64,000 nucleotides of DNA, from positions 1 to 64,000 of the IMG/VR virus record IMGVR_UViG_3300020183_000053; one strand, 5' to 3'. The translations under genes were made by a program, and so were the position numbers. Positions 18,050 to 63,119 of the stretch are shown here, piece by piece. Positions within the stretch are counted from its first letter, which is position 1. Every line of letters starts with the position of its first letter. The notes beneath the pieces are model-generated. The model did not search any database, was not told the DNA's origin, and saw only the letters and a list, made by a program, of their open reading frames with translations. The DNA comes from a virus.

Positions 18050-18075
18050 GTGAACCTCCTGCTGACACCACCTGC

Positions 18076-18155: not shown

Positions 18156-18425
18156 TCAGCGCCACGCGCTGGTGCGGTCGCACCAGCTGTGCGCCTCGGC
18201 CAGCTCGGCGTCGGTGGCCTGCCGTGTGGCCCACACGTGCGCCAGCACCTCGTCCACGCACCGCTGCTCGTCTGCCTGCAGCCGCTCCAGCAGGGCGGCG
18301 TGCGCCTCTGCGCCACGTGCCTGCTGAATGGGGTCAGGCTGCAGCAGCCCCCACACCAGCCCAGCACCCAGCACCGCCAGCGTGGCGCCCAGCACGGTGC
18401 CCAGCACAGCGTCAACCCGGCTCAC
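18156..18425 (-). CDS. Small membrane-anchored hypothetical protein
   Basis: N-terminal hydrophobic helix; GGAGG RBS. Confidence 0.55.
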   Translation of the reverse strand: MSRVDAVLGTVLGATLAVLGAGLVWGLLQPDPIQQARGAEAHAALLERLQADEQRCVDEVLAHVWATRQATDAELAEAHSWCDRTSAWR

Positions 18426-38083: not shown

Positions 38084-39406
38084 TCAGCCCAGATAGTTAG
38101 CGAGAATGGTGTCCGTTACGCTGGGCGCGGTGCCACCCAGCGTGATGCGGGTTTTGCTCGTGCCGCTGTTCCGGTCGACCACGAACTGGCCATCGGTGGG
38201 GTTCGACGCCACCTTGACCAGCATCTGGCCGTTCAGCGCCACGAGCACGCCAGGGAAGAACTCTGTGCGAATGTCCTGCCCCAGATCGTAGGCGAGCGCC
38301 GTGCCGCCAGAGAAGCTCTCGGCGAAGGGCCGGAAGCCAGCCTTCAGCAGCGTGACGGCGTTGTCAGCCAGCTTGGTCGTGGTCACAGCGGTGCCAGCGA
38401 TCTGCGTGGTGCCGACACCGCCATCAGCGATCTTCACGCCGCTGGCGTCCTGCGAGAGCGTAACGCCGTTGAGCCGCAGCGTGACGAACCCGCTGCCGTC
38501 CACCTGCACGCCGTTCGTTGCCTTGACCGCAAGGCCACCACCAGCCCCGAACTCCAGCCCCTTGTTCGCTTCCAGGCTGACGAACAGCCCGTTCACGTCG
38601 CGGGTGAGGCCGCTGTTCGACTTCGTGAGCACCTGCAAGCCGCCGCCGCCATCGACGCCGAGCGCGGGGTTCGAACCAGCGAACTTGACGGCGACCGCGT
38701 CCGACGAGATCTGGATGCCGCTGCCCACGTTCACGTTCAGCGTGTTTCCGGACTTGCTCAGACCGTCGCCCGCGACAATCGTCCCCAGCCCCGTGAACTG
38801 CACGAAGGTGATCGCGGTCGTGCCGAGGGTCACGCTGTCGTTCGTACAGACGAAGCCAGTATCGGCGTTGGAACCCTCCGACACGAAAATGGCGGCGCTG
38901 GGGAACTCGCTGCCAGCGTCCAGGTCGGGCGAGCGGGACGCTGCACCAGACGACGGCGCGACATACACGCCGTTTTGACTGCCGGTGGACTGGTTGACCA
39001 GCAGGATGCGGTCGCCCGCAGCCAGGGTCACGCCGTCCACCGTCTGGCCAGCGGCGAGGCCGGTGCTGATGTCCACGTTGACGGTGGACAGCACGCGGGC
39101 GGGCTGCTTCCACTTGATGCCCTGCGCCACGCCATCGACGTATGCCTTGGTCGCCACGTCGCTGTCGGCGCTGGGTGCAGCCGCCCGCAGCACGGCGCCG
39201 GTGAACGCCCAGGTGCCAGTCAGGTCGGCCTTCGCGGCGGTGACCGCGTTGGCCGCCAGCTTCCCGGTGGTGACGTTGCCATCGGCAATCGCGGCAGTAT
39301 CCACCGCGTTGTTCGCCAGCTTGTCGGCGGTGACGGCGTCGTTCGCCAGCTTGGCGGTGGTGATGATGCTATCGACGAGCTGCCGGGTAACGAACTGCAG
39401 GGCCAT
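38084..39406 (-). CDS. Virion fibre/decoration protein
   Basis: AVT..KLA repeats, DVATKAYVD, DGVTL..GDRILL.NQ...QNGVY and Gly-rich beta repeats. Confidence 0.75.
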   Translation of the reverse strand: MALQFVTRQLVDSIITTAKLANDAVTADKLANNAVDTAAIADGNVTTGKLAANAVTAAKADLTGTWAFTGAVLRAAAPSADSDVATKAYVDGVAQGIKWKQPARVLSTVNVDISTGLAAGQTVDGVTLAAGDRILLVNQSTGSQNGVYVAPSSGAASRSPDLDAGSEFPSAAIFVSEGSNADTGFVCTNDSVTLGTTAITFVQFTGLGTIVAGDGLSKSGNTLNVNVGSGIQISSDAVAVKFAGSNPALGVDGGGGLQVLTKSNSGLTRDVNGLFVSLEANKGLEFGAGGGLAVKATNGVQVDGSGFVTLRLNGVTLSQDASGVKIADGGVGTTQIAGTAVTTTKLADNAVTLLKAGFRPFAESFSGGTALAYDLGQDIRTEFFPGVLVALNGQMLVKVASNPTDGQFVVDRNSGTSKTRITLGGTAPSVTDTILANYLG

Positions 39407-46973: not shown

Positions 46974-49900
46974 TTAGAACCTGCCACGGTCGAACCCGAC
47001 GTGCACGCCCGCCCGCAGTGTAGTGCGGCGCAGCTCTCGCTGCAGCCTCGGGGCCTCGCCCCGCTGGCCAGCCGTGAACAGCGCCTCGTCCAGCGTGCGC
47101 CCGTTGGCCTGCACCACCACCTGCAGCTGCTGCCCAGCGGCTGCGCCTGCACCACCAGCCACCGCGCCCTGCATCGCCGTGGCGGCCTGCAGCATCGCGC
47201 TGGCCAGCCCCGCAGCTGCAGGCACCTCCAGCTCGCCGGGCGTGTAGCCACGCGCCGCTGGTGCCAGCCCAGCAGCCAGCTGCCCACCCATAGCGTCCAG
47301 TGCCTGCCGTAGCAGGTCGGCGGGGCGCTGCGCAGCGATCACATAGTCACCCGGTGCAAACCGGGCGCTCAGCCCATCGGTGCCTGCCTTCACGGCACCG
47401 GGCGTGTCGCCGAACGATGAAGTCTCCGCGCGGCCCAGCGTGAAAATCTCGGTCAGCACGTCCTTGAAGAACTGCACCAGCCGCTGCAGGCCCGCCACGA
47501 CAGCCTCACCGATGCCCCGCGCCAGTGTGGCCAGCGCCTCACCGAGAGCCAGCACCAGCCCCACAGTCAGCTCGTACAGAATGGCAGGCAGGCTCTTGAT
47601 GATAGCGGGCACCAGCTCGGTGATGAACGCCACCACCAGGGTGGGGACAAGCCCGATGAGCGCGGTCACAATCTGCGGCAGTGCGTTAGCGACACCACCG
47701 ATAACCGCAGGAATAAGCCGAACAATCGCTGAGATAAGCTGCGGCAGCATCGTGATGATGGCCACAATCAAGTCGGGCAGCATGGCCACCACACCCACCA
47801 CGATGTCGGTCACGGCCAGCAGCAGCGCCTCCACGATGGACGGCAGCTGCAGTATCAGCTCCTCCACCAGCAGGGTGACCGCCTGCAGCAGTGCCGCCAC
47901 CAGCTGCGGCAGCTGCTGCACCACGCCCGTGATCAAGCGCGGCACCTCGGCCACCAGCACAGTCACCACCTGCAGCGCGCCCTGGGTGAGCGCCTGCACG
48001 ATGGTGGGCAGCTGGGCGATGACCACCTGCACCAGCCCCAGGGCGGCGTCCACCAGTGCGGGCACCAGCGCCTGCACCACCTGCACCAGCGCCTGCACCA
48101 GCTGCGGCACAGCGCGCAGCACGGTGTCCACCAGCACAGGCACCAGATCAATCAACGCCACCACCGCCTGCAGCAGTGCGGGCAGCGCGGCCTGCAGCGC
48201 GGCCACCAGCGCCTGCACCAGCGCGGGCAGCTGCTCCACCAGCGCCTGCACCAGCACGCCCACACTGTCGGCCAGCGCCTGCACCACAGTGGGCAGCTCG
48301 GCCACCAGGGCGGCCACCAGGGCGCCCGCAGCCTGGGCCAGCGTGCCAGCCAGCCCAGGCAGCGCAGCGGCGAACTGCTGCACCAGGGCGGGCAGCTCGG
48401 CAGCCAGCGCCTGCAGCGCCGCAGGTGCTGCCTCCACGAACGTGGCCAGCAGGTCGCTGGCGCCGCCCAGCAGCTCCTGCACGTACAGCACCGCACCCTC
48501 TGCTGCCGTGGCGGGAAGCCCAGCCAGCGCGGCCTCGTAGTCGGCGGGCGACAGCTCACCGGCTGCCAGCTGCTCCTGCAGTGCGGCGGCGTCGGCCATG
48601 CCGCTGGCAGCAGCGTCCACCGCACCGGACAGGCTGAACGCGAACCCGGTCAGCTGCCCGAACAGGTCCACCACACCACGCGCGGCGCTGGCGATACCCA
48701 CACCGATGGCGCGGGCCACCGCCAGCGCGGCGCGTTGCACAGCGCCGAAGGCTGCGGCCATCACCTGGGCGGCCTTGCTCGTTTCTTCGGCAGTATCCTC
48801 GCCCGCTGCAATGATGGCAGCGGCATAGTGTGCCACCACTGCCTGCCGCTCGGCCAGCTGGTCCTCACCCAGCCGTGCCAGCAGGGCGTCCCGCTCACGC
48901 TCCAGCTCGATCACCTTGCGGTTCTGGCCAGCGGTCAGCAGCACCACCTCTTCAGTGAGCTTGCGTTTCTGCTCCAGCACCCGCGCGTCATACACTGCAT
49001 TGATTTCGGCTATCTGCTGCTCGGTTGCCTCGCTGTTCGCCGCCAGGGTGCGCAGCCGGTCCAGCTCGATGCGCTCCAGCTCATTCATCCTGCCTTCCGC
49101 GTCGGACAGCTGCAGCTGCTCGATCTCGGCGTTGATGGCTGTGTATGTCTCACGCACCCGCGCCAGCGTTTCGGCAGCCTCCACCTCTTCCAGCCGGGCG
49201 CGCGCCTGCATGAACCTCAGCATCACGTCCAGCCGCTCGGCGCTGCCCGCCTCATACAGTGCCAGCTCCTGCTGGAACTCCAGCTCCAGGGCGGCGCGCC
49301 GGGCGGTGGTGCGCGCCTGCAGGTCGGCCCGCTCACGCTCAGCGGCGGTGCGCCCTGCGGCGGCCAGCGCATCGTCCAGCTGCTGCACCAGTGCCTGCTG
49401 CTCCTGCTGCTGCTGCGCCGCAGCGTCGGCACGCACCACCGCCACCACGCGGGCGCGCTCCTGCTCGGCGGCGCGCACCTTGGCAGTCTGCCGACCATAT
49501 GCGGCCACCTCCGCGTCGAATACCTTGTTCAGATCTGCCAGCTCGTTTTGAAGCTCCAGGGCGGCCTGCTGGGCGGCCTGTACCTGCCGCCGGGCGATTG
49601 CGTCCTCGACCCGCTCCACAGCTTTCAGTCGCGCCTCGTATGCCTTCTTTGCCTCGTCCGCGCCAGCCTTGGCCGCCTTGCCTGCCCCCTCGTCCTCGTC
49701 GGCCATGCGCCCGGTGCTGGCCGCCGCAAGGTGTGCGGCGATCTCTTTTTTGGCCAGTGCCTGCGTTGCCAGGGTGGCACCCTGCGCCAGCCCCTCGGCC
49801 TTCTCGCGCGCGTCATCGACACGTGCCGCAAGCTCTTGCGCCCGCGCCCGTGCCTCCTCTATGCTGCCCGCCAGCCCCTGGATCTGCGTTTTGAACGCCA

Positions 49901-51887
49901 CCGTGGCCTGCCCACCAGCCTGGGTGAACGTGTCATAGGTGTCGATAGCCTTAGTGTACCGGGCCAGCTCGCGGTTCAGGGTGGCCACCTCCCCACGCGC
50001 CGCGCCCTGCGCCTGCTGCAGTGCCGCAGCGGCGTCAGCTGCCTGGGTGCTGGTGTCGTATTGCAGCTGCAGTGCGGTGGCGTGGTCCAGCACCACCTCG
50101 GTGCCGCCCAGCGTGGCGACGAACAGATTGCCGCTCGCCAGCCCAGCCTGCACACTGGCAGTGTCCAGCGCCTGCAGGCGCTCCAGCTGCTGGTCCAGCG
50201 TGCTGGTCAGCTCGCCCTCGGCCTGCAGCTGCAGCTGCAGCTGGCCCAGGCGCACGCCCTGCTGCGCCGCCAGGGCGTCGGCGGCGGCACGCTGCGCCTG
50301 CGCCCGCGCCTCTTGGTCCGCTGCCAGTGCCGCCTCGGCGGCGCGCAGCCGTTCGGCTGCGGCCTCGGCCTCGTTGGTGGTGGAAACAAGGTAGATGAGG
50401 CCAGCCACCAGCGTGCCGACAGCAGCTACCACTGCGTAGATGCCACCAGTGGCAGCGGTCAGTGCCAGCATCACCGCGCGAATGCTGCCGCCCATCGCGG
50501 TCAGCGCGGTGATGCCGCCCTGCACAGCGATAGTGAACACGCGCACCTTGTCGGCCACCCATACCAGCAGCATCGTTTTCGCAAGCGTGTCCAGCGTTGG
50601 AATCATGCGCACCAGCAGAACCACGGCGTCCCGCAGGCCAGCCACGAAGTCCACGAAGGTGGTGGCAATCATGGCGCGGTTCTCGCGCAGGAACTTGACC
50701 GCCTGCCCCACCATCTGCTCAAAGCTGTTACCGATGGTGCCAGCTGATCGGTTGAAAACAGCGGCCACGTAAGCGATAGTGCTGGCAAGCTCGTCAAGCA
50801 GGTCGCCCAGCGGCCCCTTCATGGTGTCGAACAGCGACAGCATGAGTTCTTGGAACGCTGACAGGGCAATATCGAACCGCCCTTGCACCGTGTCCGTCAT
50901 CCTGTTGTAGAGCACCTCGGCCTGCCCGGCGCTGTTTTCCACTTGATCGAGCAGTGTATAGTATCCTGTAGTGCTGTCCCCGAACTGTCGCGCAATCTGC
51001 GCCACGTTGGCACCACTGCGCTGCCCGAACACGTCGAGGGCGTCGCTGGTGGTCATGGACACACGCCCCACCGTCGTCATGATTTCAGCGAAGCTGTGCA
51101 GTTCGGGGTTGATGTCCTGCGCCGTCAGCCCATACTTGGCCAGCGTGCGCTGCGCGTCCTCGGTTACGTTGGCTGCGGCAGACAGCGCCATGCGAAAGTT
51201 CGTGCCCGCCATCGAGCCTTCGAGGCCCAGGTTTCGGAACTGCGCCACCGCTGCCGTCGTTTCCTCAAGCGAGTACCCGAAGCCTGCGCCAACGGTGCCA
51301 GCGTATTTCATGGCCTCGCGCAAGCTCTCCACGTCAAAAAGCGACTTGCGCAGTGCAGTGCTGAACACGTCGGCCACTCGGCCCGCCTGTGTAGCGTCAA
51401 GCTGAAACTGCGACAGGGTGGCAGCGGTGAGCGAGGTCGCCGTGGCCATGTCGGTGCCCGCGCCAGCCGCGAACAGCAGCGCCGGGCCGCTGCTGTTCAG
51501 AATGGCGTTCACGCTCATGCCAGCGCGCGCGAAGTCCTGCATCGCCGTGGCGGCCTCGGTCGCCGTGAACTTTGTGCTGGCTCCAAGCTCGCGCGCGCGC
51601 GCGGTCAGCTGCGCCAGCTCGGTGTCGCTGGCACCAGCCACGGCGCCCACCGTGGTGATGGCCTGCTCAAAATCGGCGCCCACCTTGACCGCAGCCACAC
51701 CGAACGCGGCTAACGCTGCACCAGCCGCAGCCAGTGCACCCGTCACAGCTGTGTCGAGACTGTCCGCGAACTTTACGCCAGCCCCCTGCATCTGCTCCAG
51801 CGCGCTGGTGGCGCCCTTGATACCACCACGGAACTGGCTGTCCTCCAGTCCCAGCTCGACCAGCAGCTTGCCGATGGTTGACGCCAT
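46974..51887 (-). CDS. Tape measure protein
   Basis: TP901-type core (AR.LG.ST.FTA.E.A; G..GS.AGT), long coiled coils and 11-residue amphipathic repeats; ~1640 aa. Confidence 0.95.
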   Translation of the reverse strand: MASTIGKLLVELGLEDSQFRGGIKGATSALEQMQGAGVKFADSLDTAVTGALAAAGAALAAFGVAAVKVGADFEQAITTVGAVAGASDTELAQLTARARELGASTKFTATEAATAMQDFARAGMSVNAILNSSGPALLFAAGAGTDMATATSLTAATLSQFQLDATQAGRVADVFSTALRKSLFDVESLREAMKYAGTVGAGFGYSLEETTAAVAQFRNLGLEGSMAGTNFRMALSAAANVTEDAQRTLAKYGLTAQDINPELHSFAEIMTTVGRVSMTTSDALDVFGQRSGANVAQIARQFGDSTTGYYTLLDQVENSAGQAEVLYNRMTDTVQGRFDIALSAFQELMLSLFDTMKGPLGDLLDELASTIAYVAAVFNRSAGTIGNSFEQMVGQAVKFLRENRAMIATTFVDFVAGLRDAVVLLVRMIPTLDTLAKTMLLVWVADKVRVFTIAVQGGITALTAMGGSIRAVMLALTAATGGIYAVVAAVGTLVAGLIYLVSTTNEAEAAAERLRAAEAALAADQEARAQAQRAAADALAAQQGVRLGQLQLQLQAEGELTSTLDQQLERLQALDTASVQAGLASGNLFVATLGGTEVVLDHATALQLQYDTSTQAADAAAALQQAQGAARGEVATLNRELARYTKAIDTYDTFTQAGGQATVAFKTQIQGLAGSIEEARARAQELAARVDDAREKAEGLAQGATLATQALAKKEIAAHLAAASTGRMADEDEGAGKAAKAGADEAKKAYEARLKAVERVEDAIARRQVQAAQQAALELQNELADLNKVFDAEVAAYGRQTAKVRAAEQERARVVAVVRADAAAQQQQEQQALVQQLDDALAAAGRTAAERERADLQARTTARRAALELEFQQELALYEAGSAERLDVMLRFMQARARLEEVEAAETLARVRETYTAINAEIEQLQLSDAEGRMNELERIELDRLRTLAANSEATEQQIAEINAVYDARVLEQKRKLTEEVVLLTAGQNRKVIELERERDALLARLGEDQLAERQAVVAHYAAAIIAAGEDTAEETSKAAQVMAAAFGAVQRAALAVARAIGVGIASAARGVVDLFGQLTGFAFSLSGAVDAAASGMADAAALQEQLAAGELSPADYEAALAGLPATAAEGAVLYVQELLGGASDLLATFVEAAPAALQALAAELPALVQQFAAALPGLAGTLAQAAGALVAALVAELPTVVQALADSVGVLVQALVEQLPALVQALVAALQAALPALLQAVVALIDLVPVLVDTVLRAVPQLVQALVQVVQALVPALVDAALGLVQVVIAQLPTIVQALTQGALQVVTVLVAEVPRLITGVVQQLPQLVAALLQAVTLLVEELILQLPSIVEALLLAVTDIVVGVVAMLPDLIVAIITMLPQLISAIVRLIPAVIGGVANALPQIVTALIGLVPTLVVAFITELVPAIIKSLPAILYELTVGLVLALGEALATLARGIGEAVVAGLQRLVQFFKDVLTEIFTLGRAETSSFGDTPGAVKAGTDGLSARFAPGDYVIAAQRPADLLRQALDAMGGQLAAGLAPAARGYTPGELEVPAAAGLASAMLQAATAMQGAVAGGAGAAAGQQLQVVVQANGRTLDEALFTAGQRGEAPRLQRELRRTTLRAGVHVGFDRGRF

Positions 51888-51934
51888 GATCACGCTCCCG
51901 CCTGCATCCTATCGCACGGGTGGCCTGGGCGGGG

Positions 51935-52832: not shown

Positions 52833-53384
52833 TCAGAGCTGGCGCTCCAGCTTGATCAGCTGCACGCGGGGCGCCAGGGCGTTGCCGTTCCAGTCGGTCG
52901 CCGAGCGGAGCGCGGTGTAGGAATACTCGAACTGATGCTCGTCCTGGCCCAGCGGCAGGGTGAGGCCCATGTCGCTGGTGGCCTTCCAGACGTACACGTT
53001 CATCGTATTGCCCGTGACCGCCATGTGGTGCTGGACCCATAGCGCACACTGTGTCACGATGGGGTCGCCGCCGAAGCTGAACGTCTCGGCGCTGCCCGAC
53101 ACGGTGGTGGTGCCAGCACCCATCGCCCGCGCGAAGTTATCGAAGTTCCACTCGATGCCGCTCACGGTCACCTTCGCGCCCTGGGTCTGCGCGAAGTTAT
53201 AGACAGGGATCTTGGGGTTTCCCTGGCTGATGTACCGCTTTTCGCTGGTGATCTCGATGCTGACACCATCCTCGGTGATGCTGCCCACGTCCACGGTGGG
53301 CGTGGCGCCAGCCACTCCCAGGTAGAGCACGGCGGGGCCGAAGCTGATGTCGTTGGTGGTTACGGTGGGGACGTTGAACGGCAC
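52833..53384 (-). CDS. Major tail tube protein
   Basis: ISFGPA.LY, G..T.DGV.I; siphovirus tube size and position. Confidence 0.85.
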   Translation of the reverse strand: MPFNVPTVTTNDISFGPAVLYLGVAGATPTVDVGSITEDGVSIEITSEKRYISQGNPKIPVYNFAQTQGAKVTVSGIEWNFDNFARAMGAGTTTVSGSAETFSFGGDPIVTQCALWVQHHMAVTGNTMNVYVWKATSDMGLTLPLGQDEHQFEYSYTALRSATDWNGNALAPRVQLIKLERQL

Positions 53385-53485: not shown

Positions 53486-53833
53486 CTACGGTCGGCGCGC
53501 GTCCTCCAGCCGGTTCCGCTGCCCGCAGCGGCGGCACGGCACCTCCACCACACCACCCGCACCTGGGCGCACGTAGCACACGAAGTCTTTGTAGCGCACC
53601 CGCAGCTCGTCTGTCTTTTCGTCGTATATGCCCAGGCGCGCGGCGCAGCTGGTGCAGCTCCACACGGTGTCACGCATCGTGGTGGCCTCGTCCCCGTCGC
53701 CGCTGCCGCTACCGCTGCTGGCGGCTGCTGCGGCCAGCACCGCCAGCTGCCCGGTCAGCGCCTGCACGGCAGCCTCCAGCTCGTGCAGGCCCACCTCCAG
53801 GCGGTGCAGCCGGGCGTCAGCGGGGGCTGCCAT
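53486..53833 (-). CDS. Zn-ribbon protein (Mu Com-like pattern)
   Basis: CTSCAARL ... VEVPCRRCGQRN. Confidence 0.55.
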   Translation of the reverse strand: MAAPADARLHRLEVGLHELEAAVQALTGQLAVLAAAAASSGSGSGDGDEATTMRDTVWSCTSCAARLGIYDEKTDELRVRYKDFVCYVRPGAGGVVEVPCRRCGQRNRLEDARRP

Positions 53834-54020
53834 CGCGCACCTCCAGCCGCACGGTGCGCCCGCAGGCACCGCAGCCCAGGATGGTGTCGCTGCCATCGCC
53901 ACGCGCCCGCCCGGCTGCAGCCTGGGCGGGCAGTGTGGCCAGCGTGGCGCCGCAGGTGCACCGCACCCGCAGCGGCGGTCCAGCCGGTGCGTTCCCGGCC
54001 TGCCAGTCCTGTGTCCTCAC
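53817..54020 (-). CDS. Small Zn-ribbon protein
   Basis: VRCTCGATLA ... CGACG; CAGGAG RBS. Confidence 0.5.
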   Translation of the reverse strand: MRTQDWQAGNAPAGPPLRVRCTCGATLATLPAQAAAGRARGDGSDTILGCGACGRTVRLEVRDGSPR

Positions 54021-54454
54021 TGTCCGCTCCTGTAACTGGCGCGCACAGCCCACTGACCGCGCGCAAAGTATGCCCTCGTCGCCTCGTTCCAGCCATCCTC
54101 GGGGCGCTCGGTTTCCACACAGTAGCCAGCCAGCGCGATGCCATTCCGGCGCAGCAGCTGGTGCTGCAGCGCGGCGGTGCACGCATCGTAGATCCGCGCT
54201 GCCGTGCCAGAGCTTTCCCGGTCATAGCAGAACAAGTCCATCGTAACGACTTGGAACGTGCTGGTGGGGCTGGTGCGGCCAGCCACCAGATCGAACACCA
54301 CCAGCGGATAGGTGGCGCCGCCCGCGTCTGGTGTGAGCAGGTGCGCGCCGTGCACCTGCGCACCCACCAGTGCGGCCACACCAGCGTCGGCCAGCAGGTG
54401 GCTGCGGACCAGCAGCTTCAGCTGCTCGATACTTGGCGCAGGGTTCAGTGGCAT
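54017..54454 (-). CDS. Tail terminator/completion protein
   Basis: L.AD..V.ALVG.....YP.VVF pattern (DUF3168-like). Confidence 0.75.
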   Translation of the reverse strand: MPLNPAPSIEQLKLLVRSHLLADAGVAALVGAQVHGAHLLTPDAGGATYPLVVFDLVAGRTSPTSTFQVVTMDLFCYDRESSGTAARIYDACTAALQHQLLRRNGIALAGYCVETERPEDGWNEATRAYFARGQWAVRASYRSGQ

Positions 54455-54993
54455 CACGGTCCTCCAGCGCCGAAGCGAATACCCGCCTGCGTGCGCAGCT
54501 CTGCACCCATCACCAGCACGAACGCGCGCAGCATCTGCGGGCGCACGTGTGGGGCGCTGGCTGTCAGCCACAGCACGTCGCGCGGCAGCATCTTTCGCGT
54601 GCCTTCCACCACCCAGGACACGTGAGGCGGCACGTTAGCCCACCATCCGAGCAGGTAGTACGGGCGGGCGCCGCCACCAGCGCCACCAGCGCGGAACTTG
54701 ACTTCGCCCTGCAGCGCGGCGGCCATGCGCCCGGTGCGCGTGTGCACCACGTGCGTTTCGCCAGCGTGCACTCTGATAGTGCCGTGCCGCTTGGCATACG
54801 GGTGATCCATCCGGCGCAGCTGCTGCAGTGTGTGGTCGGTGCGGGTAAGGTTGGCGTAGACCGCGCCCTTCGCCACCTCGCCCGCCTTGCCCATCGCCCG
54901 GCCAGCGGCATCGCGCAGCACCCGGTCGGACAGCTGGCGCAGGTTGATCACCGTCGCCTCAATGCCGACCACCCGTGTGCGGTTCGCTGCCAT
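54454..54993 (-). CDS. HK97 gp10-like neck/tail completion protein
   Basis: V.G.E.....L; RTG.M; VEGTRKM.PR. Confidence 0.7.
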   Translation of the reverse strand: MAANRTRVVGIEATVINLRQLSDRVLRDAAGRAMGKAGEVAKGAVYANLTRTDHTLQQLRRMDHPYAKRHGTIRVHAGETHVVHTRTGRMAAALQGEVKFRAGGAGGGARPYYLLGWWANVPPHVSWVVEGTRKMLPRDVLWLTASAPHVRPQMLRAFVLVMGAELRTQAGIRFGAGGP

Positions 54994-57818
54994 CAGCCCA
55001 CCTCGCAGCCACTATCCGCCAGCGGGGCCGCAGGGTCAAGCGCATCCAGCTGCAGCTCCAGCAGCGCGTCCAGGTCAACCTCTGCGGGTACCGCAGAACG
55101 CCCCGCGCCCAGCTTCGGCTGGTCAGGTGCGTGCTCGGCCAGCCACTGGTGCATCTGCTGCACCTGCCCGTGCAGCGTGTGGCTGGGTGCCAGCCGCCGC
55201 TGCGCTTCACCCAGCAGCAGCCGCCCGATGCGCAGGTGGTACAGCGCGGCCTCGCGGAATGGCAGGTACCCGTTCCCCGCGCAGCGCATCGCTGCCTCAT
55301 AGCACGCCCACTGTTCCTCGCGGCGGTTATCGTTGCCGTATTGCAGGCCCAGGCTCACCCATGCGCCTGGGCTGGTGGGGTCGTCCTGCAGCTGCTTCAC
55401 GAGCAGGCGCGTGTACCGTGCCAGCTTGGCCTGCATGGCCTCGGGGCCGCCGCTCAGGCCACGGTGGTCCACGGTGAACGGGGCATAGCGCACCTGCGGG
55501 TGGATGCCGCGCTCACCCAGGGCGGCCATTCCCTTTTCCAGTGTCTCGTGCACCCTGTAGCTGAACCGCAGGATGCCACCTGCCAGCCGGAACAGCCGGG
55601 TGTTTTCGGACCAGTTCCAGGCGCCGTCTGCCCGCCAGTTACGGAACCGGAACAGCCACGCCCAGCTGTCGGTGACCTCGACCATGCGGCGCAGCGCAAT
55701 CGTGGCCAGGAACGTGCTCTCATACTGCTCGTCGGGGTCCATCACAAGGCACCACGCGCAGCCCAGCTCGCGCAGCCGGTCCACGCCCGCGTTCCGCGCT
55801 GTGCCCAGGTCGTCATTCAGCGGGTGGTACACCCACTCCGCACCGTACCGGGCGGCCACGTACTGCACGTCGGCGCTGGGCGCGGTGCCCTCGGGGCCGG
55901 TCCACACCAGCACCACGTGGTCAGCCAGCGCATACAGGCTGTCAAGGTGGCGGTGCAGGTCGTACAGCTGCTCGCCATCGTGCCACAGCATGGTGAACCC
56001 CAGCCCGTTGTCAGGCTGCCAGGGTGCCAGCTGCATCCCCTCCTCGCGCACGATGTGGTCGTACCCGCCCGCGCCACTGGTGCGTCCCTGGGTGAGCACA
56101 CTATCGGGGTTCTTGTCTTTGCCACGGTAGAACGCCACTTTCCGCAGCCGGTCAGCGTGGCGCAGGTATCCATAGTGACGGAACCGCAGAGCGGCCACGC
56201 GCTTGGCGTTCTCCCCCGCATCGGGCACGTTCCCGCAGTGCAGCCCGATGTCGTTGCCCGCCAGCACGTTCTGCACGCTGGGGTGGGTCACACGCCACAG
56301 GCGGAACCCGCGCATCGAGCTGCGATAGTCGGGGCCGCACCACGGCACGTCCACGCGGCACAGGCGCGGGCTGTCCCAGTGGTTCGCCCAGCCCACGTCA
56401 TAGTGGGTCACCAGCGGGTCGGGGTTGCGCATCCACTTCTGCAGCAGGGCGCGGTCCACCCGTTCCTCCACCACCTCGTCGTGGTCAACGCTCAGCAGCC
56501 AGTCGGGCGCAAGCTGCAGCGCCAGCCGGATGGCGGCGTTGCGCTCGTCGCGCTCGTTCCACTCGCCCACCCAGCTGCGCACCAGCACAGGCACGTCACG
56601 CTGGCTGCAGGCACTGGCCAGCCGCTCGGCCCACACCTGCAGCACGGCGGCCTGCTCGTCTGGCGTGGCGTCACGGCAGGCCTCCAGCAGCGCCTGCTCT
56701 GCAGGCTCGAACAAGCCAGCACGCCACTCGGGTGTGGTGGTAACCTCCGCAGGGTTGCCGGTGAGCAGGATAGCGATGCCGTCCACCAGCTGGCTGGTGC
56801 GCCCGATGCTGGCGCGCAGCATCGCAAGGTCGTTCGGCACGTGCAGCTTCACGCGCCACAGCGCCACCAGCCGCTGCTCGCGGTCGGTGTAGCCCTCCCA
56901 GGTGCGCAGGTACGTCGGCAGGTTCGCCAGCCCGCGCTGCGCATCGGGGAACACAGCGTCCAGCGTCTGGTGGCCCAGGTGGTGAACGTAGCAGTTAGTC
57001 GCGATGGCCATACGCCAGCCCAGCAGCTGCACACGCGCGGCGATGTCGTTGTCATCGTACCCGCCGATACCGTACTGCGGGCGGATCAGACACGGCTGGC
57101 CCTCGTGCTGCTCCAGCAGCTGCAGCAGGCACTCGCGGCCATACAGCACGCACAGCCCTGACAGGAAGCTGGCGGCCATCGGTGTCCACCCGTTCTGCTC
57201 GGCGTAGTCAGCAGCGAAACGGTCCAGCATGGCGTCTGCATCTGCCGTGAAGGCGCTGCCTGTCGCCATCTTTACGTCGGGCGCACGCACCTGCTGCATA
57301 CCCGCCACCACGTTTGACACGGGGCCGACCATGCCGATGCGCCCGTAGCCACCCACAGGGTGCGCGGGCGCCTGCTGACCGTAGCCCGCCACCTCACCCT
57401 GCAGCCGAACGTCGGGCGTGTGCAGCGCACCGTGCATCCGGTGCAGCCAGCCGGGCGTCACGCGCACGTCGTCGTTCATGATCACCACAGCGGGCGGCAG
57501 CCCACCGTGCTCCAGCGCCACCTGCACCCCTGCGTTCACAGCGCCAGCCCAGCCCGCAGGCCCAGGCATCTGCACCCACTGCAGCAGCACCTGCTGGCGC
57601 TCGCCGCTCGCCGCCTGGACCATCGCCGCCACCTGCTGCTGCAGCTGGTCGATACTGCCGTCTGCCAGCCCCTGCGGCAGCGGGTTCACGACCAGCATCA
57701 GCCGCCAGCGGTCCACCTGTGTGCAGGTGAGCAGGCGCTGCACGCACGGCAGCACCAGATCGGCGCGCCCCATCGTGGGCACAATGACGAGGCAGTGGTG
57801 TTCGTTGTCGTGGTGCAT
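54993..57818 (-). CDS. Multidomain glycosyltransferase (three GT-A/GT2-like domains plus TPR-like end)
   Basis: GT#1 IVPT...N.G...MNDDV..TPGWL...GGYDDND; GT#2 NERDERN...DWLLSVDHDE...HYGY; GT#3 LG.ARN......W.LVMDPDE...RVHE; helical C-terminus. Confidence 0.85.
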   Translation of the reverse strand: MHHDNEHHCLVIVPTMGRADLVLPCVQRLLTCTQVDRWRLMLVVNPLPQGLADGSIDQLQQQVAAMVQAASGERQQVLLQWVQMPGPAGWAGAVNAGVQVALEHGGLPPAVVIMNDDVRVTPGWLHRMHGALHTPDVRLQGEVAGYGQQAPAHPVGGYGRIGMVGPVSNVVAGMQQVRAPDVKMATGSAFTADADAMLDRFAADYAEQNGWTPMAASFLSGLCVLYGRECLLQLLEQHEGQPCLIRPQYGIGGYDDNDIAARVQLLGWRMAIATNCYVHHLGHQTLDAVFPDAQRGLANLPTYLRTWEGYTDREQRLVALWRVKLHVPNDLAMLRASIGRTSQLVDGIAILLTGNPAEVTTTPEWRAGLFEPAEQALLEACRDATPDEQAAVLQVWAERLASACSQRDVPVLVRSWVGEWNERDERNAAIRLALQLAPDWLLSVDHDEVVEERVDRALLQKWMRNPDPLVTHYDVGWANHWDSPRLCRVDVPWCGPDYRSSMRGFRLWRVTHPSVQNVLAGNDIGLHCGNVPDAGENAKRVAALRFRHYGYLRHADRLRKVAFYRGKDKNPDSVLTQGRTSGAGGYDHIVREEGMQLAPWQPDNGLGFTMLWHDGEQLYDLHRHLDSLYALADHVVLVWTGPEGTAPSADVQYVAARYGAEWVYHPLNDDLGTARNAGVDRLRELGCAWCLVMDPDEQYESTFLATIALRRMVEVTDSWAWLFRFRNWRADGAWNWSENTRLFRLAGGILRFSYRVHETLEKGMAALGERGIHPQVRYAPFTVDHRGLSGGPEAMQAKLARYTRLLVKQLQDDPTSPGAWVSLGLQYGNDNRREEQWACYEAAMRCAGNGYLPFREAALYHLRIGRLLLGEAQRRLAPSHTLHGQVQQMHQWLAEHAPDQPKLGAGRSAVPAEVDLDALLELQLDALDPAAPLADSGCEVG

Positions 57819-57896
57819 CTTCTGCGCTCCCCGCCTCTCGGGCGTGTGTGTGGGGTGCGCAGTGTATCGCGGGCGGGCTACCTTGGGGAGCCAGCG

Positions 57897-58526
57897 TCAG
57901 GGCGCGTACCTGTCAGCCCGCAGCTGCCAGTGGTGTGGGCGCACGCCGAAGCCCACACGCACCTCACGCACGCCACCCACCAGCCACTGGTCGCCAGTGG
58001 CCTGCTCCACGATGTAGTCCTGCGGGCTGGGCGCCCAGGTTTCCTCATAGTCCAGCAGGAACGTGGCGGCGTCCATCGCCTGCACGCCCTGGTTCTGCGC
58101 TGGTGCGCGCATGAACCCAGACCACCCCAGCACGGCGAGCTTCGCCTCGGCCACTGTCACCAGCATGAACTGCGGCGTGCCGTCCGCACTCACCGCCTGC
58201 ACCGCCACTGTCGGCACGGTGGCCTCGTTCGCCAGCCCGGTGGTGGCCACGCTGGTCAGTGTGGCGAAACGCTTGGTCGTCACCTGGGTTCCGTTTGCCG
58301 CGAAGGTTAGCGTTTCGCTCTGTGCCGCACCACCGGGTGCCGTGCCCACCAGCTCCACGGTGCCGCTGCCTGTGGTGCCGCCAGCCACAGTCACCTGCAG
58401 GAACGCCTGCCCCAGCAGGGCGCGGGTCGGCGTCAGCGTAGCTGCTGCGGTGGTGGCCACCAGCGCGAACGCCGTCTTTCGGCGCACGTCCACCACCGTG
58501 TTCGCGCTGCTGGTGACCGTGCTCAT
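57897..58526 (-). CDS. Head-closure (stopper)-like protein with an extra beta-rich insert
   Basis: C-terminal D.IV....W.V..V......HHW.L pattern; Thr/Gly-rich N-terminal half. Confidence 0.5.
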   Translation of the reverse strand: MSTVTSSANTVVDVRRKTAFALVATTAAATLTPTRALLGQAFLQVTVAGGTTGSGTVELVGTAPGGAAQSETLTFAANGTQVTTKRFATLTSVATTGLANEATVPTVAVQAVSADGTPQFMLVTVAEAKLAVLGWSGFMRAPAQNQGVQAMDAATFLLDYEETWAPSPQDYIVEQATGDQWLVGGVREVRVGFGVRPHHWQLRADRYAP

Positions 58527-59032
58527 GCCTTGGTGCCCCACACGAACGTGTCCAGCCCATTCCGCTCCAGCCGCCCCTGCAGGCTGGCCCACCCACAGGC
58601 GGCGCGCAGCACCTGCAGCATTTCGTCGGGGTCGCGCCCCCCGTAGTAGCCGGGCGTCGGGCTGTCCTCCAGGTGGTGCTCGGGCCGCAGCCTGCTGGCA
58701 CAGCTGAACGCCAGCAGGCCACCGGGCCGCAGGTGCTGCGCCGCTGCCTGCAGTGTCTGCTGCCAGAACGGGTCATGCTCCAGCATCTCGGTGCTCACCA
58801 CCACGTCCACCGGGCCACCCACAGGTGGGTGCTCGTGGGCGATGCCCACCACGTCCACGCCAGCGCCAGCGTATGCGTCGATACCCAGGTAGTACGACGG
58901 CGCCGGGAACAGGCGGCGCGGGCTGCCGTTGATGTCGCGGCTGCCATACTCCAGCACTCGCGCACCAGCGGCGAACAGGTGGGGATGGTTCAGGCGCAGC
59001 CCGCTCAGCCAGTCCATGACGGTGGCGTGCAT
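58523..59032 (-). CDS. SAM-dependent methyltransferase (glycan-associated type)
   Basis: VLEYGSRDING, Y.GID...G.GVD.V, DVVVSTEMLEHD, LRPGG. Confidence 0.85.
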   Translation of the reverse strand: MHATVMDWLSGLRLNHPHLFAAGARVLEYGSRDINGSPRRLFPAPSYYLGIDAYAGAGVDVVGIAHEHPPVGGPVDVVVSTEMLEHDPFWQQTLQAAAQHLRPGGLLAFSCASRLRPEHHLEDSPTPGYYGGRDPDEMLQVLRAACGWASLQGRLERNGLDTFVWGTKA

Positions 59033-59652
59033 CAGCTCTCCAGGCTGGGCGGCGCCAGCGTTTCCGTGGTGGGGTCTGCCGCTGGCGCGTCGGCCTGCGC
59101 CTGCGTGTCGTGCGCTGTGGGCGCCTGTGCGGCCTGTGGGGGCGCCTCGGGCTGCGGGGCGGCGTCGGTGCGGACGGTGCGCTTGCGGGCCGCCTGCGGG
59201 GCGCTGGCGGGCGCCTGCAGCGTGTGCTGCGGCTCCCACGCACCGGCTGCCAGTGCCTGCACCTGCACCTGCGCTGCATCAGTCACCACCACCCGCAGCG
59301 CCGCATCGGCCACTGTCAGCGCGTGCACCTCGTGGTGCGTGGCCAGTACCTGCAGGGTGGCGGCCAGCTCGTCCACGGGGCCAGCCACCAGCACCACCAC
59401 GGCAGCGCGCAGGTCCGCGCTGCCCAGCTGCGCGCCCAGGTAGGCAGGGTCACCCGCCAGCAGGGTGGCACGCCCCACGTGCGCGCGCCAGCCGCCCGCT
59501 GCAGCCACCGCACGGCCACGCCCCACAGGCGGCAGGGTTGCGCCCGGTGGCTGGTCCAGCAGCAGCACGTGGCGCGCATAGTGCAGCCCAGGCTGGGCGC
59601 TGGGCAGCAGGTCCATCGTCGGCAGCACGCCCACCACGTCGTTCTGGCTCAC
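59032..59652 (-). CDS. Hypothetical protein
   Basis: Coupled between the dehydratase and the methyltransferase; low-complexity tail. Confidence 0.6.
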   Translation of the reverse strand: MSQNDVVGVLPTMDLLPSAQPGLHYARHVLLLDQPPGATLPPVGRGRAVAAAGGWRAHVGRATLLAGDPAYLGAQLGSADLRAAVVVLVAGPVDELAATLQVLATHHEVHALTVADAALRVVVTDAAQVQVQALAAGAWEPQHTLQAPASAPQAARKRTVRTDAAPQPEAPPQAAQAPTAHDTQAQADAPAADPTTETLAPPSLES

Positions 59653-60638
59653 GATGCCTCCATTTCAGTGAACGGCGCCAGCTCAACGCTGGAGCCATGG
59701 TATTCGCTCAGCAGGGCGCGCAGGTTTTCGGGCGCCAGCAGGTCGGCGGTGGCTTCCCAGCCCAGGGCGCGCAGGCGGCTGCCGTCCACGCGGTAGGCTG
59801 CATCCTGCCCAGGCCGGTCAGGGCTGGTGACCACAGCCTCGTCCTCGTGCACGCCCAGCTGGGAGGCCAGCGCCAGCACCACCTCGCGCACGCTTGCCAC
59901 ACGTGGTCCGGCGATATTGAAGGTGGCACCAGTGTTCACCGCGCCCGCAGCCAGCCACGCGGCCACGTTGCACAGCGCGTCCGCGAACTCGTGCACCGCC
60001 ACCCACTGTCGCAGCTGGGTGCCGCCACCGTGCAGTGGCACAGGGCGGCCCGCCTGCAGCAGCGCGCAGGCAATCGGCAGCAGCTTCTCGCCCAGCTGTC
60101 CCGCCCCCCATGCGTTGCACCCGCGCGTGATGGCGTACTGCAGCCCGGCGCTGGTGCCCATCGCGCGCACCGCCAGCTCCCCGGCTGCCTTGCCTGCGCT
60201 GTAGGGGCTGCTCGGGCGCAGCACGCTCCACTCTGGATAGGGGCCACTCAACGCAGGGCCATACACCTCGTCGGTGCTGCAGTAGACCAGCGGCACACCA
60301 GCCGACGCGCACGCAGCGGCCACCACCTGGGTGCCGTAGCCGTTGACCAGCATAGCCTCGCCCGGCTGCTGCAGGCTGCGGTCCACGTGCGACTGCGCCG
60401 CAAGGTGCAGCACTACGTCGGGGCGCGCGCCTGCCAGTGCCACCCGCACGTCGTCGGGCGAGCACACGTCACCCAGCCACAGCTGGTCGCCCAGCGCGCT
60501 CTCCACAGCGCCCCACCCGGTGGCGGCACGGGTGCGCGCGTCCAGCACGGTGACACTGCGCGCGCCGTGCGCCTGCGCCAGCTGGCGCACCACGTGCTGC
60601 CCGATGAACCCTGCACCACCTGTGACCAGCGTGCGCAT
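59649..60638 (-). CDS. rmlB: dTDP-glucose 4,6-dehydratase-like SDR
   Basis: LVTGGAGFIG, HLAAQSHVDRS, STDEVYG, PSSPYSAGKA, EKLLP, DRPGQD..Y. Confidence 0.9.
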   Translation of the reverse strand: MRTLVTGGAGFIGQHVVRQLAQAHGARSVTVLDARTRAATGWGAVESALGDQLWLGDVCSPDDVRVALAGARPDVVLHLAAQSHVDRSLQQPGEAMLVNGYGTQVVAAACASAGVPLVYCSTDEVYGPALSGPYPEWSVLRPSSPYSAGKAAGELAVRAMGTSAGLQYAITRGCNAWGAGQLGEKLLPIACALLQAGRPVPLHGGGTQLRQWVAVHEFADALCNVAAWLAAGAVNTGATFNIAGPRVASVREVVLALASQLGVHEDEAVVTSPDRPGQDAAYRVDGSRLRALGWEATADLLAPENLRALLSEYHGSSVELAPFTEMEAS

Positions 60639-60862
60639 CACCGCCCCCTCGTGCGCCGTGTGCGGCGCGGCTCCGCTGCTGGCAGTTCCACCTGCTGCCA
60701 GCGTTTGCGCTGCAGCACCACCGCAGCCGTGGCGGTGTGTGCCTGGGCCAGCCACCCGCCTGCGGTGCGCTGGCAGGTCACCGCCTCTTCTGGCGTGTGT
60801 ACCACCAGCCCCTCGTCAGGGTCGCCGTCAACGTGTGGGCGTGTCCAGTGCGTGGTGGTCAT
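60638..60862 (-). CDS. Small hypothetical protein
   Basis: Coupled ORF. Confidence 0.5.
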   Translation of the reverse strand: MTTTHWTRPHVDGDPDEGLVVHTPEEAVTCQRTAGGWLAQAHTATAAVVLQRKRWQQVELPAAEPRRTRRTRGR

Positions 60863-61428
60863 GCGGTGGCGTCCGCAGGGAACGCCCGCACGTACCGAGC
60901 CAGGATTGCAAGCGCGGCGGCTGGCAGCGCGCTCTCGTCCAGCGTGTACCTGTAGCCGGAAGCGCCCTCACTGCTCATTCCAGCGTGCCGCGCCCGATTG
61001 AACTCTGCCACAGCGCACAGCGTGGCGGCGTGCTGCAGGTCCGCAGGCGGCTGCGCGTACCCGAACGTGTACGTGACCGCCACCTGCTGGCGCCCCTCGG
61101 GGAAGTAATACCCCAGCGGGGCCAGCCGCACGATGCCGGGTCGGTTGTCCACGTACCACTGCGTGGCCTGCAGTGTGCTGCCCGTACACACCACTGCCGC
61201 CACACTCTCCACAGGGAAGCCACGCAGGCGCAGCTCGCTGGTTCCTGCGTTTTCGATGTCGTACAGCTCAGTCACGGTGGTAGCGGTCAGCGCGGCCATG
61301 CCGCAGTAAGCCAGCACCTGCTGCTCGCCCACGTCCACGAGATCGTCCAGCAGGGCGTCGTGCATGGTGACGCCCGCCGGGATGCCGAGAACCCGCTTGC
61401 AGCGGGCGGTGCTGGTCAGTGTCGCCAT
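60859..61428 (-). CDS. Head-tail adaptor (gp6/gp15-like)
   Basis: D.LL..L......V..YCG, E.YD, L...PV.SV, V.VTY..GY...P.DL..A. Confidence 0.8.
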   Translation of the reverse strand: MATLTSTARCKRVLGIPAGVTMHDALLDDLVDVGEQQVLAYCGMAALTATTVTELYDIENAGTSELRLRGFPVESVAAVVCTGSTLQATQWYVDNRPGIVRLAPLGYYFPEGRQQVAVTYTFGYAQPPADLQHAATLCAVAEFNRARHAGMSSEGASGYRYTLDESALPAAALAILARYVRAFPADATA

Positions 61429-61429
61429 C

Positions 61430-61936
61430 TCACACCTCGGCAGCGCGGGGTCCGCGCCGGTAGCGATAACCGACATTCCCATGCGCTGCTGCGTGGCGCC
61501 GCTGGCGCGGGGTCAGGTTGCACTCGGCCAGCCCCCGTTCCTCCAGCAGCCGGATGGTGGTGCGCCACTCGCCGTCCGTGATGCCGCTGGCCTGGACGAG
61601 CGCCCGCTTGTCCTGCCACTGGTCGGTGAGCGCCGCGAAGATAGCGCGCTGGCTGGGTGTGCTGATGCGTGGTTTCGCGTCCTCAAGCGCCTGCAGCCAC
61701 TCGGCGGTGCAGTCCTGCCAGCCCAGGCACAGCGCCCGCGCGTGTGCAGCCTCACCCTGCAGGAACAGGGTATGTGCCACCTCACCACCCAGCTCAATGG
61801 CGCGGCTGTCGGTGGCCTCGTCATACGTGGCGAAGGCGATAGGCTGCGCGTCGTGGTGCGCTGCATCCCGGTCGTAACGCCGCAGGACGAACCGATAGGT
61901 GCCTGCAGCTGGCGGGGTGTCGTCGATTGCACTCAT
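61430..61936 (-). CDS. Hypothetical protein with C-terminal winged HTH
   Basis: IFAAL.....K..LV..SGI....W..TI..L.E.G; AGGAGG RBS. Confidence 0.6.
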   Translation of the reverse strand: MSAIDDTPPAAGTYRFVLRRYDRDAAHHDAQPIAFATYDEATDSRAIELGGEVAHTLFLQGEAAHARALCLGWQDCTAEWLQALEDAKPRISTPSQRAIFAALTDQWQDKRALVQASGITDGEWRTTIRLLEERGLAECNLTPRQRRHAAAHGNVGYRYRRGPRAAEV

Positions 61937-62111: not shown

Positions 62112-63119
62112 TTAGGTGGCGGCGATACCGGCCAGCACGCTGGCGCCCTTGGTGTTCGCGAGCACCACAGCGCCGTCCCAGTAGATGTCGAACTGGTCGA
62201 ACTGGCTGTCGGTGGTGGCCAGCGGCATCATGGTCATCGGGGTCAGCTCTTCCAGGTAGGCGAAACGCTTGTTCACCACCACCAGCGCGGTGGTGGGGTT
62301 GGTGGCTTCGCCCGCGAACGCCGTGATGCTGGTGCCGCTCCAGCTCATGGCGTCAGACATGCCGGTGGACACCACCAGGGGGATGCCGTCGTAGGTCCGC
62401 ACGCGGAACCCAGCGGCGATCTCCACCTCATTGATGAACTGCTGCTGCGCCTGCAGGGCGGCGTTCAGCTTGCGGATACCCTTGAACGAACCGTAGATAA
62501 CGAGATCGCTGCGGTTACCGCTGCCGCGCACGCTGTCGATGGTTTCGTCCAGCTTCGCCAGGGTGAGACTGCCGCCTGCGCTGGCGCTGGTCTGCGCCAC
62601 CACCTGCCCGCCGACCGCGTTGATGAGGGTCAGCAGACCGTTCATCATATTCGCGTCGCCGCCCGCGCCGTTGTTCCCGACGAAGATGCACGCCTCCAGC
62701 GCCTCGTTGAAGTCGTCAGCCTTCTGCATCATTTCTTCGGCGAGGATGTCGATGTAGCTGCGGCCACGTGCCCGCATCTTGCGGGTGACGCGCCCACGGG
62801 TGGCGAGCGTGGCGTAGGTGAACGTCGCCTGCGCGTAGCTGCCAGTGCTCTCCACCACGCTGTCGGTGTCAGCCACCCACACGTCGCCCACGCTCATGGA
62901 GCTGGCGGTGCGGCGGTTGATGATGGCTGCCGAACCGCTGCCCGGCTTGCGGTCCATCGTCCCCAGGGCGCCGAACTCGCGGATCGACAGCTGCTGGATG
63001 ATGCGGTTGGTGAAGTTCTGGACCAGCGTGCTGCCAGCGCCAGCGACGTTGATGGCGCGGGCGAACGCCTCGCGCTTCGACGGGTCGAGGCCCGCCCACA
63101 CGGTAGGGGTGGTGCTCAT
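62112..63119 (-). CDS. Major capsid protein (HK97 fold)
   Basis: 335 aa downstream of protease/scaffold; F.G.......GL, L..LDE.ID, TYDGIP.V; strong codon bias. Confidence 0.85.
   Translation of the reverse strand: MSTTPTVWAGLDPSKREAFARAINVAGAGSTLVQNFTNRIIQQLSIREFGALGTMDRKPGSGSAAIINRRTASSMSVGDVWVADTDSVVESTGSYAQATFTYATLATRGRVTRKMRARGRSYIDILAEEMMQKADDFNEALEACIFVGNNGAGGDANMMNGLLTLINAVGGQVVAQTSASAGGSLTLAKLDETIDSVRGSGNRSDLVIYGSFKGIRKLNAALQAQQQFINEVEIAAGFRVRTYDGIPLVVSTGMSDAMSWSGTSITAFAGEATNPTTALVVVNKRFAYLEELTPMTMMPLATTDSQFDQFDIYWDGAVVLANTKGASVLAGIAAT

Follow-up and report, generated by a model that had tools for sequence, protein, structure and literature searches.

To our knowledge, a few mycobacteriophages are so far the only phages in which the particle has been demonstrated to be glycosylated by enzymes that the phage itself encodes, a modification that shields their virions from antibodies. 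According to the work of Freeman et al. 2023, as relayed by PMC12363180 and PMC12582341, these phages (e.g., Che8 with gp110, Corndog with gp38 and Myrna) use their own glycosyltransferases (GTs) to glycosylate capsid and tail-tube proteins. Among viruses of eukaryotes, the chlorovirus PBCV-1 codes for A064R, with two rhamnosyltransferase domains and a methyltransferase domain, and for A111/114R, with three predicted GT domains, and chloroviruses also encode sugar dehydratases, e.g., GMD and, in ATCV-1, UGD (PMC9614988). In bacteria, the O-linked N-acetylglucosamine (GlcNAc) transferase GmaR (PDB 22ao), which acts on Listeria monocytogenes flagellin, has a GT2 domain followed by a tetratricopeptide repeat (TPR) region that is proposed to bind flagellin (PMC9638930). 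Here we describe a module centered on a single GT with three catalytic domains, placed among the head-tail genes of an uncultured tailed phage (54993–60638, minus strand). The window, i.e., the whole 64,000-nt stretch that was analyzed, comprises bases 1–64000 of the 74,873-bp IMG/VR record IMGVR_UViG_3300020183_000053, which has direct terminal repeats and is estimated to be complete. Our reading, to which we give a probability of about 55%, is that the module is expressed late and acts as a soluble system for the glycosylation of the phage's own virion proteins.

The GT is a 941-aa protein encoded at 54993–57818 on the minus strand, with three successive GT-A domains, a TPR end and a disordered tail (residues 931–941). 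The first domain, D1 (residues 1–312; 56883–57818), is a classic GT2 domain of the PF13641 kind with an NDD motif (D116–D117). The second, D2 (residues 313–600; 56019–56882), is a SunS-like GT-A domain with an SVDHDE motif (D445/D447/E448), whereas the third, D3 (residues 601–800; 55419–56018), is GmaR/SunS-like with a DPDE motif (D694/D696/E697) and a VHE motif (H757/E758). These are followed by the C-terminal TPR region (residues 801 to ~900; 54996–55418), which is recognizable as such at the level of the family profile. In Pfam, D1 alone is recognized (residues 9–295), by PF13641 (42.8 bits, cut-off 27) and PF00535 (38.2 bits, cut-off 23.3). Among 5.8 billion proteins searched there were 109 full-length homologues, whose names offer nothing functional beyond "GT2 family glycosyltransferase", with one of them including "TPR". 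In an alignment of 105 homologues, D116 and D117, which along with N115 directly follow the strand 110–114, are invariant in D1. The D2 motif S443-x-D445-H-D447-E448, located after the strand 440–444, has its aspartates conserved at 90% or above and E448 invariant, and the D3 residues D694, D696, E697, H757 and E758 are all invariant. An AlphaFold2 model built from the homologue alignment (mean predicted local distance difference test score, pLDDT, 94; predicted template-modeling score, pTM, 0.91) places each of the acidic motifs just behind the fourth strand in a Rossmann-like domain, which is the position expected of a GT-A DxD motif. The three separate DxD-type GT-A domains and helical end of the original prediction are thereby recovered by Pfam, structure prediction, and fold and profile searches, with the helical end now identified as TPR; likewise, a check for degenerate active sites found the DxD motif intact in all three domains and conserved across the 105 homologues.

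The affinities of the domains bear directly on the likely acceptor. D1 superposes at VIA Z ~18 on GT-A enzymes such as ppGalNAc-T2 (polypeptide N-acetylgalactosamine (GalNAc)-transferase 2), WrtF, RmlT and TarP. The last two bring into view the explanation that the module modifies a glycopolymer of the host cell envelope (teichoic acid, lipopolysaccharide or capsule precursors) late in infection, which could stop the progeny from adsorbing to debris or exclude other phages. For this it may be said that D1 aligns at Z ~17 both with RmlT, a rhamnosyltransferase of Listeria, and with TarP, which is encoded by a prophage and transfers GlcNAc to wall teichoic acid, that TarP-type enzymes are soluble and cytoplasmic, and that a rhamnose-type donor pathway, for which the phage has candidate enzymes, is typical of cell-wall polymers. 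However, a polypeptide acceptor is what the TPR and the two SunS/GmaR-like domains suggest, and the GT has no stretch fit for spanning a membrane, with none of its 19-residue windows exceeding a hydrophobicity of 1.4. Moreover, the gene keeps to the neck genes, away from any moron or lysogeny region, a tyrosine integrase was not detected in the phage genome, and a scan of 185,579 species genomes returned neither a prophage copy nor any full-length relative of the GT, the partial matches being D1-like regions in three metagenome-assembled genomes (MAGs) of Actinomycetes and a single D3-like one in a Kapaibacterium MAG. An envelope polymer as the target thus appears unlikely to us.

The kinship of the remaining domains is more specific. 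D2 modeled alone (pLDDT 89.5) and compared with 48,161 representative chains has SunS (7msp_B) as its top match, at Z 14.8 over 202 residues and 3.0 Å, followed by several dozen other GT-A enzymes, with ~25 unrelated ones at Z 10–12. For D3 along with the helical end, the structural matches are ThuS (Z 18.7) and SunS (Z 17.2), and they extend to residue ~875; the D3 family profile retrieves GmaR (9.9e-13) and SunS (2.5e-8) from PDB. In these alignments the DPDE motif of D3 corresponds to the DADE of GmaR and the DADN of SunS, and its VHE motif to the IHE and VHE of the respective proteins. A compact 780-aa member of the family (P0204) finds GmaR at 9.5e-26 even by its single sequence; relatives of 750–880 aa had been considered as forms lacking D1, a possibility that was rejected as P0204 aligns over its full length with all three domains present. 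An hhalign comparison of D2 with D3 (91% probability, E 1e-6) marks D2 as a paralogue of D3, whereas D1 and D3 are only weakly linked (40% probability). By descent, the closest characterized enzymes are GmaR and SunS/ThuS.

The family profile of the C-terminal 140 residues, searched against PDB, detects consensus TPR proteins (1e-52 to 1e-16) and the TPRs of SPINDLY and OGT (3e-14 to 3e-8). Pfam TPR_2 is matched by the C-terminal regions of 14 of the 34 family members, with that of the window's own copy showing no Pfam match when searched alone; the TPR is short, with one to two repeats by profile. A polypeptide is the probable acceptor, since D2 and D3 fall in a branch of GT-A enzymes whose characterized members glycosylate polypeptides, flagellin in the case of GmaR and glycocins in that of SunS and ThuS, and since a TPR follows them. 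The GT shares with GmaR a homologous D3, the aligned DxD and HE motifs, the order of GT followed by TPR and a soluble nature; it differs in having two extra GT-A domains in front, a short TPR, a location in a neck operon and no anti-repressor domain. That GmaR, the closest characterized relative, acts on flagellin favors the alternative that the enzyme glycosylates a protein outside the virion—a host surface protein such as flagellin or pilin (a receptor), a host defense protein or a non-structural phage protein. The TPR, too, suggests that there is a protein partner, whichever it may be. We return below to the conserved placement of the gene, which weighs in the other direction.

With SunS and ThuS (PDB 7msn, 7msp, 7msk), the best structural matches of D2 and D3, the phage enzyme shares a layout in which a helical, substrate-binding part comes after a GT-A domain. 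These enzymes, however, have a single catalytic domain, act on a small Cys-containing peptide and reside in bacteriocin clusters, and there is no such cluster in the phage. This kinship raises the alternative of a glycocin-like system, in which a small peptide encoded by the phage would be S- or O-glycosylated by the enzyme in the manner of SunS; the small open reading frames (ORFs) in the vicinity, p74 and the Cys-rich p138, might be brought forward in its favor. Yet these small ORFs do not accompany the GT across its family (p74 is seen only in close relatives), and no gene for a precursor peptide, a transporter or a thiol-disulfide oxidoreductase was recognized, leaving this alternative very improbable. 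Comparably slim is the chance that the enzyme glycosylates phage DNA on a hypermodified base. Phage DNA glycosyltransferases are known (bioRxiv 10.1101/2023.12.21.572611), but the nearest homologues of the GT are transferases acting on proteins or peptides, it bears a TPR, and a hydroxymethylase of the thymidylate-synthase kind, which could supply a hydroxymethyl-pyrimidine acceptor, was looked for and not found. We also know of no description of glycosylated 7-deazaguanines, which we count against DNA as the target; a search for Tet/JBP came up blank, but its control matched nowhere and the result is hence uninformative.

In terms of function, the closest precedents by analogy are the virion glycosylation of mycobacteriophages and the capsid glycosylation machinery of chloroviruses. 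The former parallels the present system in having phage-encoded GTs, which there act on capsid and tail-tube proteins, whereas the enzyme described here is a fused three-domain GT with a TPR, in a phage with an apparent supply of activated sugar of its own. Kinship with the mycobacteriophage enzymes was not detectable: tblastn searches of 50,697 GenBank phage records yielded no match to the GT either as a whole protein (E 1e-5) or as D3-TPR (E 1e-2). PBCV-1 offers the parallel of multi-domain transferases, methyltransferases that O-methylate rhamnose and virus-encoded nucleoside diphosphate (NDP)-sugar 4,6-dehydratases, all working in the cytoplasm on the virus's own capsid protein. It is nevertheless a giant virus of eukaryotes with N-linked glycans, its methyltransferase is fused to the transferases where that of the phage is a separate gene, and the likeness drawn here is one of function. 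A third kind of parallel, that of tandem GT-A domains in one chain, may be struck with the dual GT-A polymerases, i.e., the Escherichia coli K4 chondroitin polymerase (2z86), the Pasteurella heparosan synthase (8vh7) and LARGE1 (7ui6). Foldseek aligns the phage GT with these over two domains across at least 600 columns (E ~1e-12), but the two-domain root-mean-square deviation is at least 12 Å and the arrangement of the domains therefore differs. These polymerases also build repeating polysaccharides and are without a TPR. Multi-GT-A proteins of other families were found in uncultured phages and giant viruses.

The GT is far from being an isolated oddity. A HMMER search over 1.84 billion cluster representatives found 204 clusters at E<=1e-30 and 570 at E<=1e-10, so that the family comprises at least 204 clusters at 50% identity. 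In IMG/VR it occurs at 58 loci, mostly on contigs of 40–100 kb with a GC content of 31–72%. Reduced to 50 non-redundant loci from uncultured phages, which still span 31–72% GC, these share the gene order capsid–adaptor–(sugar genes)–p209–GT–p179–terminator–tube, where p209 and p179 are neck-module proteins and the terminator is the tail completion protein. Downstream of the GT, the tube gene is present in 45 of the 50 and p179 is the immediate neighbor in 43; upstream of it are found the capsid gene and p209 (38 each) and the adaptor (36). The GT thus holds its place among the neck genes even though the hosts of these phages differ widely, and it was found only on viral contigs and metagenome DNA. 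The simplest conclusion would be an acceptor that travels with the phage, and hence a virion protein. This same conservation bears on the alternative of a non-virion protein: a placement in the neck region that holds across hosts of 31–72% GC fits a target carried by the phage and not a host-specific one, and the family's occurrence on viral contigs and metagenome DNA, with no full-length relative in the scan of species genomes, argues in the same sense. We accordingly see a target outside the virion as improbable, if less so than DNA or a small peptide.

The stretch between adaptor and GT behaves as a slot with a changing set of genes. Among the 36 loci with the adaptor upstream, to which the following slot counts refer, an RmlB-like gene is present between adaptor and GT in 29, a methyltransferase in 11 and the 206-aa gene of the window in 6. 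Elsewhere, the dehydratase has other companions: at L040 (38% GC) the slot holds two short-chain dehydrogenases/reductases (SDRs), a DegT/DnrJ/EryC1 aminotransferase and an MT-A70 methyltransferase, and at L028 and L036 an SDR and a GDSL/SGNH esterase. Such swapping of methyltransferase, aminotransferase and GDSL esterase is what would be expected if the slot genes tailor a sugar. The MT-A70 gene of L040 (L040:3173–3718) comes right after the adaptor and before the two SDRs and the DegT aminotransferase, from which it follows that the neck slot also takes in genes unrelated to sugars. In some relatives, the RmlB-like SDR reaches 446–465 aa (L036:7381–8721, L033:5489–6886), and the Pfam match to it is split into two stretches. 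At the level of whole genomes, RmlC-like genes are found in 3 of the 5 complete relatives, and one complete relative has the GT without any SDR.

In the window, the slot contains the RmlB-like gene (59649–60638, minus strand), coding for an extended SDR that is predicted to be an NDP-hexose 4,6-dehydratase (PF01370 at 3e-47). Among solved structures, the ten closest to it are without exception dTDP-glucose 4,6-dehydratases, headed by 8shh at 3.5e-45, and its motifs GGAGFIG, STDEVYG and YSAGK (YxxxK) align with the same motifs of that protein. TIGR01181 is its best-scoring NCBIfam equivalog model, yet the 204.4 bits obtained lie below the cut-off of 365.1, on account of which we consider it a divergent dehydratase with a putative nucleotide specificity. 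It falls in phrog_540, which is annotated as nucleotide-sugar epimerase. The provision of nucleotide-sugar enzymes by the phage itself had been called unusual for a genome of this size; with a dehydratase between adaptor and GT in most of the related loci and a PHROG family to receive it, this is not supported. The phage's enzymes for sugar supply also extend beyond those first described, to two further candidates that lie among early and lysis genes at a distance of 25–30 kb from the RmlB-like gene, both on the minus strand. One is an RmlC-like cupin of the dTDP-sugar epimerase family (29683–30318; PF00908 at 37.7 bits, cut-off 27), which scores 32 bits against TIGR01221, far below the cut-off of 155.75. 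The other is a short RmlD-like SDR of 235 aa, of the 4-ketoreductase type (34842–35549; PF04321 at 61.7 bits, cut-off 27), with GxxGxxG, STDYV and YxxxK in its translation; its match to PF04321 spans only positions 1–137 of the 287 in the model, and it scores 50.8 bits against TIGR01214 with its cut-off of 224. Together, the RmlB-, RmlC- and RmlD-like enzymes would make a 6-deoxyhexose. The complete 74.9-kb genome contains no RmlA-family nucleotidyltransferase, and any such pathway must therefore start from an NDP-hexose of the host. Apart from the 941-aa protein itself, the genome has no other GT2 gene and no GT-B gene.

The slot further codes, on the same strand, for a class I S-adenosylmethionine (SAM)-dependent methyltransferase of 169 aa (58523–59032; PF13489 at 36.1 bits against a cut-off of 27, and phrog_32762 at 1.2e-23), which shows weak similarity to O-methyltransferases of the UbiG type. 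Next to it lies an unassigned 206-aa protein with an Ala/Pro/Gln-rich tail (59032–59652), which occurs in close relatives only and has no match in Pfam, PHROGs or NCBIfam.

Taken together, the gene content, the intact active sites and the co-variation of the sugar-tailoring genes support the module as a coherent glycosylation system, as predicted from its genes. By the virion-glycosylation reading, it would be transcribed late, together with the capsid, neck and tail genes. The RmlB-like dehydratase would take an NDP-hexose of the host, most likely dTDP-glucose, and with the RmlC- and RmlD-like enzymes would furnish a 6-deoxyhexose donor of the rhamnose type. The 941-aa enzyme would bind a structural protein through its TPR, whereupon the GmaR/SunS-like D3, and perhaps its paralogue D2, would link a first sugar to the side chain of a Ser, Thr or Cys residue, the remaining GT-A domains would add further sugars, and the methyltransferase would O-methylate the resulting glycan. 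It could also be that D2 and D3 each glycosylate protein directly, instead of the three domains building a single oligosaccharide. The conserved position of the GT beside defined neck proteins provides a short list of candidate acceptors, among which p209 is a candidate by its proximity to the GT.

Several observations weigh against a virion target. No acceptor was found, and when sequon-like motifs were counted in 20 structural versus 50 non-structural proteins against shuffles, none was enriched in the structural set: G-x-T-[GA] gave z -0.3 and G-x-[ST]-[GA] z -0.1, with [ST]-G-[ST] marginal at z 1.8. The capsid and tube proteins are without the Ser/Thr-rich terminal extension of the mycobacteriophage kind. 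D1 resembles the prophage or bacterial teichoic-acid GTs TarP and RmlT as well as the polypeptide GalNAc transferases, and the late-operon position tells of timing and not of target. All three of the RmlB-, RmlC- and RmlD-like proteins score under the respective NCBIfam equivalog cut-offs, which renders the donor sugar uncertain. Thus, the virion-glycosylation system originally proposed stands as to its machinery—the module is coherent, the DxD sites are intact, the dehydratase retains its TDE and YxxxK motifs, the neck position recurs in the 50 loci and the slot genes are swapped—whereas its acceptor side has yielded neither a protein nor a sequon.

If the module works as read, phage self-glycosylation would be general, and in a large clade of environmental phages it would be an ancient and conserved component of how the virion is assembled. 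While self-glycosylation by phages is as such known, the combination of three GT-A domains and a TPR in one chain is an uncharacterized architecture, and one with a large environmental distribution. The variability of the sugar-tailoring genes suggests diversifying selection on the particle surface. A further-reaching proposal, which we advance tentatively and hold somewhat more apt to fail than to stand, is that a clade of uncultured tailed phages with genomes of 70–100 kb, represented by at least 204 protein clusters in hosts of 31–72% GC, obligatorily glycosylates its neck or tail. In these, one enzyme would both prime the glycan, through its GmaR-like domain and TPR, and extend it, through the two further domains, with a swappable cassette for methyl, amino and acetyl groups diversifying the product into a variable coat reminiscent of O-antigen. 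If the module works as first read, its compact enzyme would moreover be a candidate tool for the glycoengineering of proteins.

As for the setting of the module, the window has a GC content of ~70%, and nearly all of its genes are on the minus strand. The gene frames were chosen by GC content at third codon positions (GC3) along with the translations, since in DNA so GC-rich the longest ORFs are misleading; thus, the longest ORFs at 58045–58776 and 58773–59279, both with ATG starts, were rejected as Arg/Pro-rich artefacts of the wrong frame. Chosen in this way, the minus-strand genes at 54993–60638 are exactly those described at the outset. On the minus strand, the 5' to 3' order runs from the capsid through p168, the adaptor, a 74-aa ORF, the RmlB-like gene, the 206-aa gene and the methyltransferase to p209, and continues with the GT, p179, the gp17-type tail completion gene, p138, the tube gene, p155 and the gene for a 1639-aa tape measure. 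Between the adaptor and p209, and again between the GT and the tail completion gene, all junctions are ATGA, GTGA or TGATG overlaps, and the sole gap in the run is one of 78 nt ahead of the GT, which bears out the claim that the genes are mostly translationally coupled. No promoter- or terminator-like sites above chance were seen in the 52–64 kb region.

The labels given to the neck genes fare unevenly. That of the head-tail adaptor (60859–61482, minus strand, as are all the genes that follow) is secure, with phrog_442 at 7.7e-26, whereas "stopper" for p209 and "gp10-like" for p179 are weakly supported. The Thr-rich, 209-aa p209 (57897–58526) is a stopper by position: 1 of the 28 members of its family matches the Pfam family Phage_H_T_join_3, and its alignment shows a conserved N-terminal domain of ~120 residues, with the motifs GGTTGSGT and SETLTF, followed by a head-tail-joining-like C-terminus. 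A search of PDB with its profile gave nothing significant, the top match being a vault protein at 0.086, and p209 itself is likewise without a relative in Pfam. In p179 (54454–54993), directly downstream of the GT, the resemblance to HK97 gp10 is weak, with 2 of the 29 family members matching PF04883. The unassigned p74 (60638–60862) is translationally coupled on both sides. Beyond p179 lie the gp17-like tail completion gene (54017–54454; PF11367 at 28 bits, cut-off 24.5), with its start set at M40 by a TGATG overlap, and the tube gene (52833–53384), with a weak match to a major-tail PHROG. Between these two is p138 (53486–53902), with seven cysteines that include two CxxC pairs; it is zinc-ribbon-like, which is odd for that position.

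The major capsid protein (62112–63119) is of the SU10 type (PF17236), with one marginal match among the cultured phage records. This family is named after a podovirus; here it is combined with a tape measure (46974–51893) and a tube protein, i.e., with a siphovirus-like tail. The large terminase is only ~27% identical to those of SPO1-like Bacillus phages, and the phage has no close cultured relative. The DNA of the window is present in full in eight lake-water metagenome runs, a possible source, and in part (55–74% of words) in three more, with no RNA run among the sequencing runs that contain it. A 440-aa protein (38084–39406) matches phrog_2647 at 6e-35, with head-decoration and tail-fibre PHROG families among its affinities; it is possibly an exposed virion protein and as such a further candidate acceptor of glycan. 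The genome also codes for a serine recombinase of ~364 aa (17321–18415; PF00239 at 4e-37) and for a protein with a VanY-type D-Ala-D-Ala carboxypeptidase domain (35989–36882; PF02557), which is probably the endolysin.

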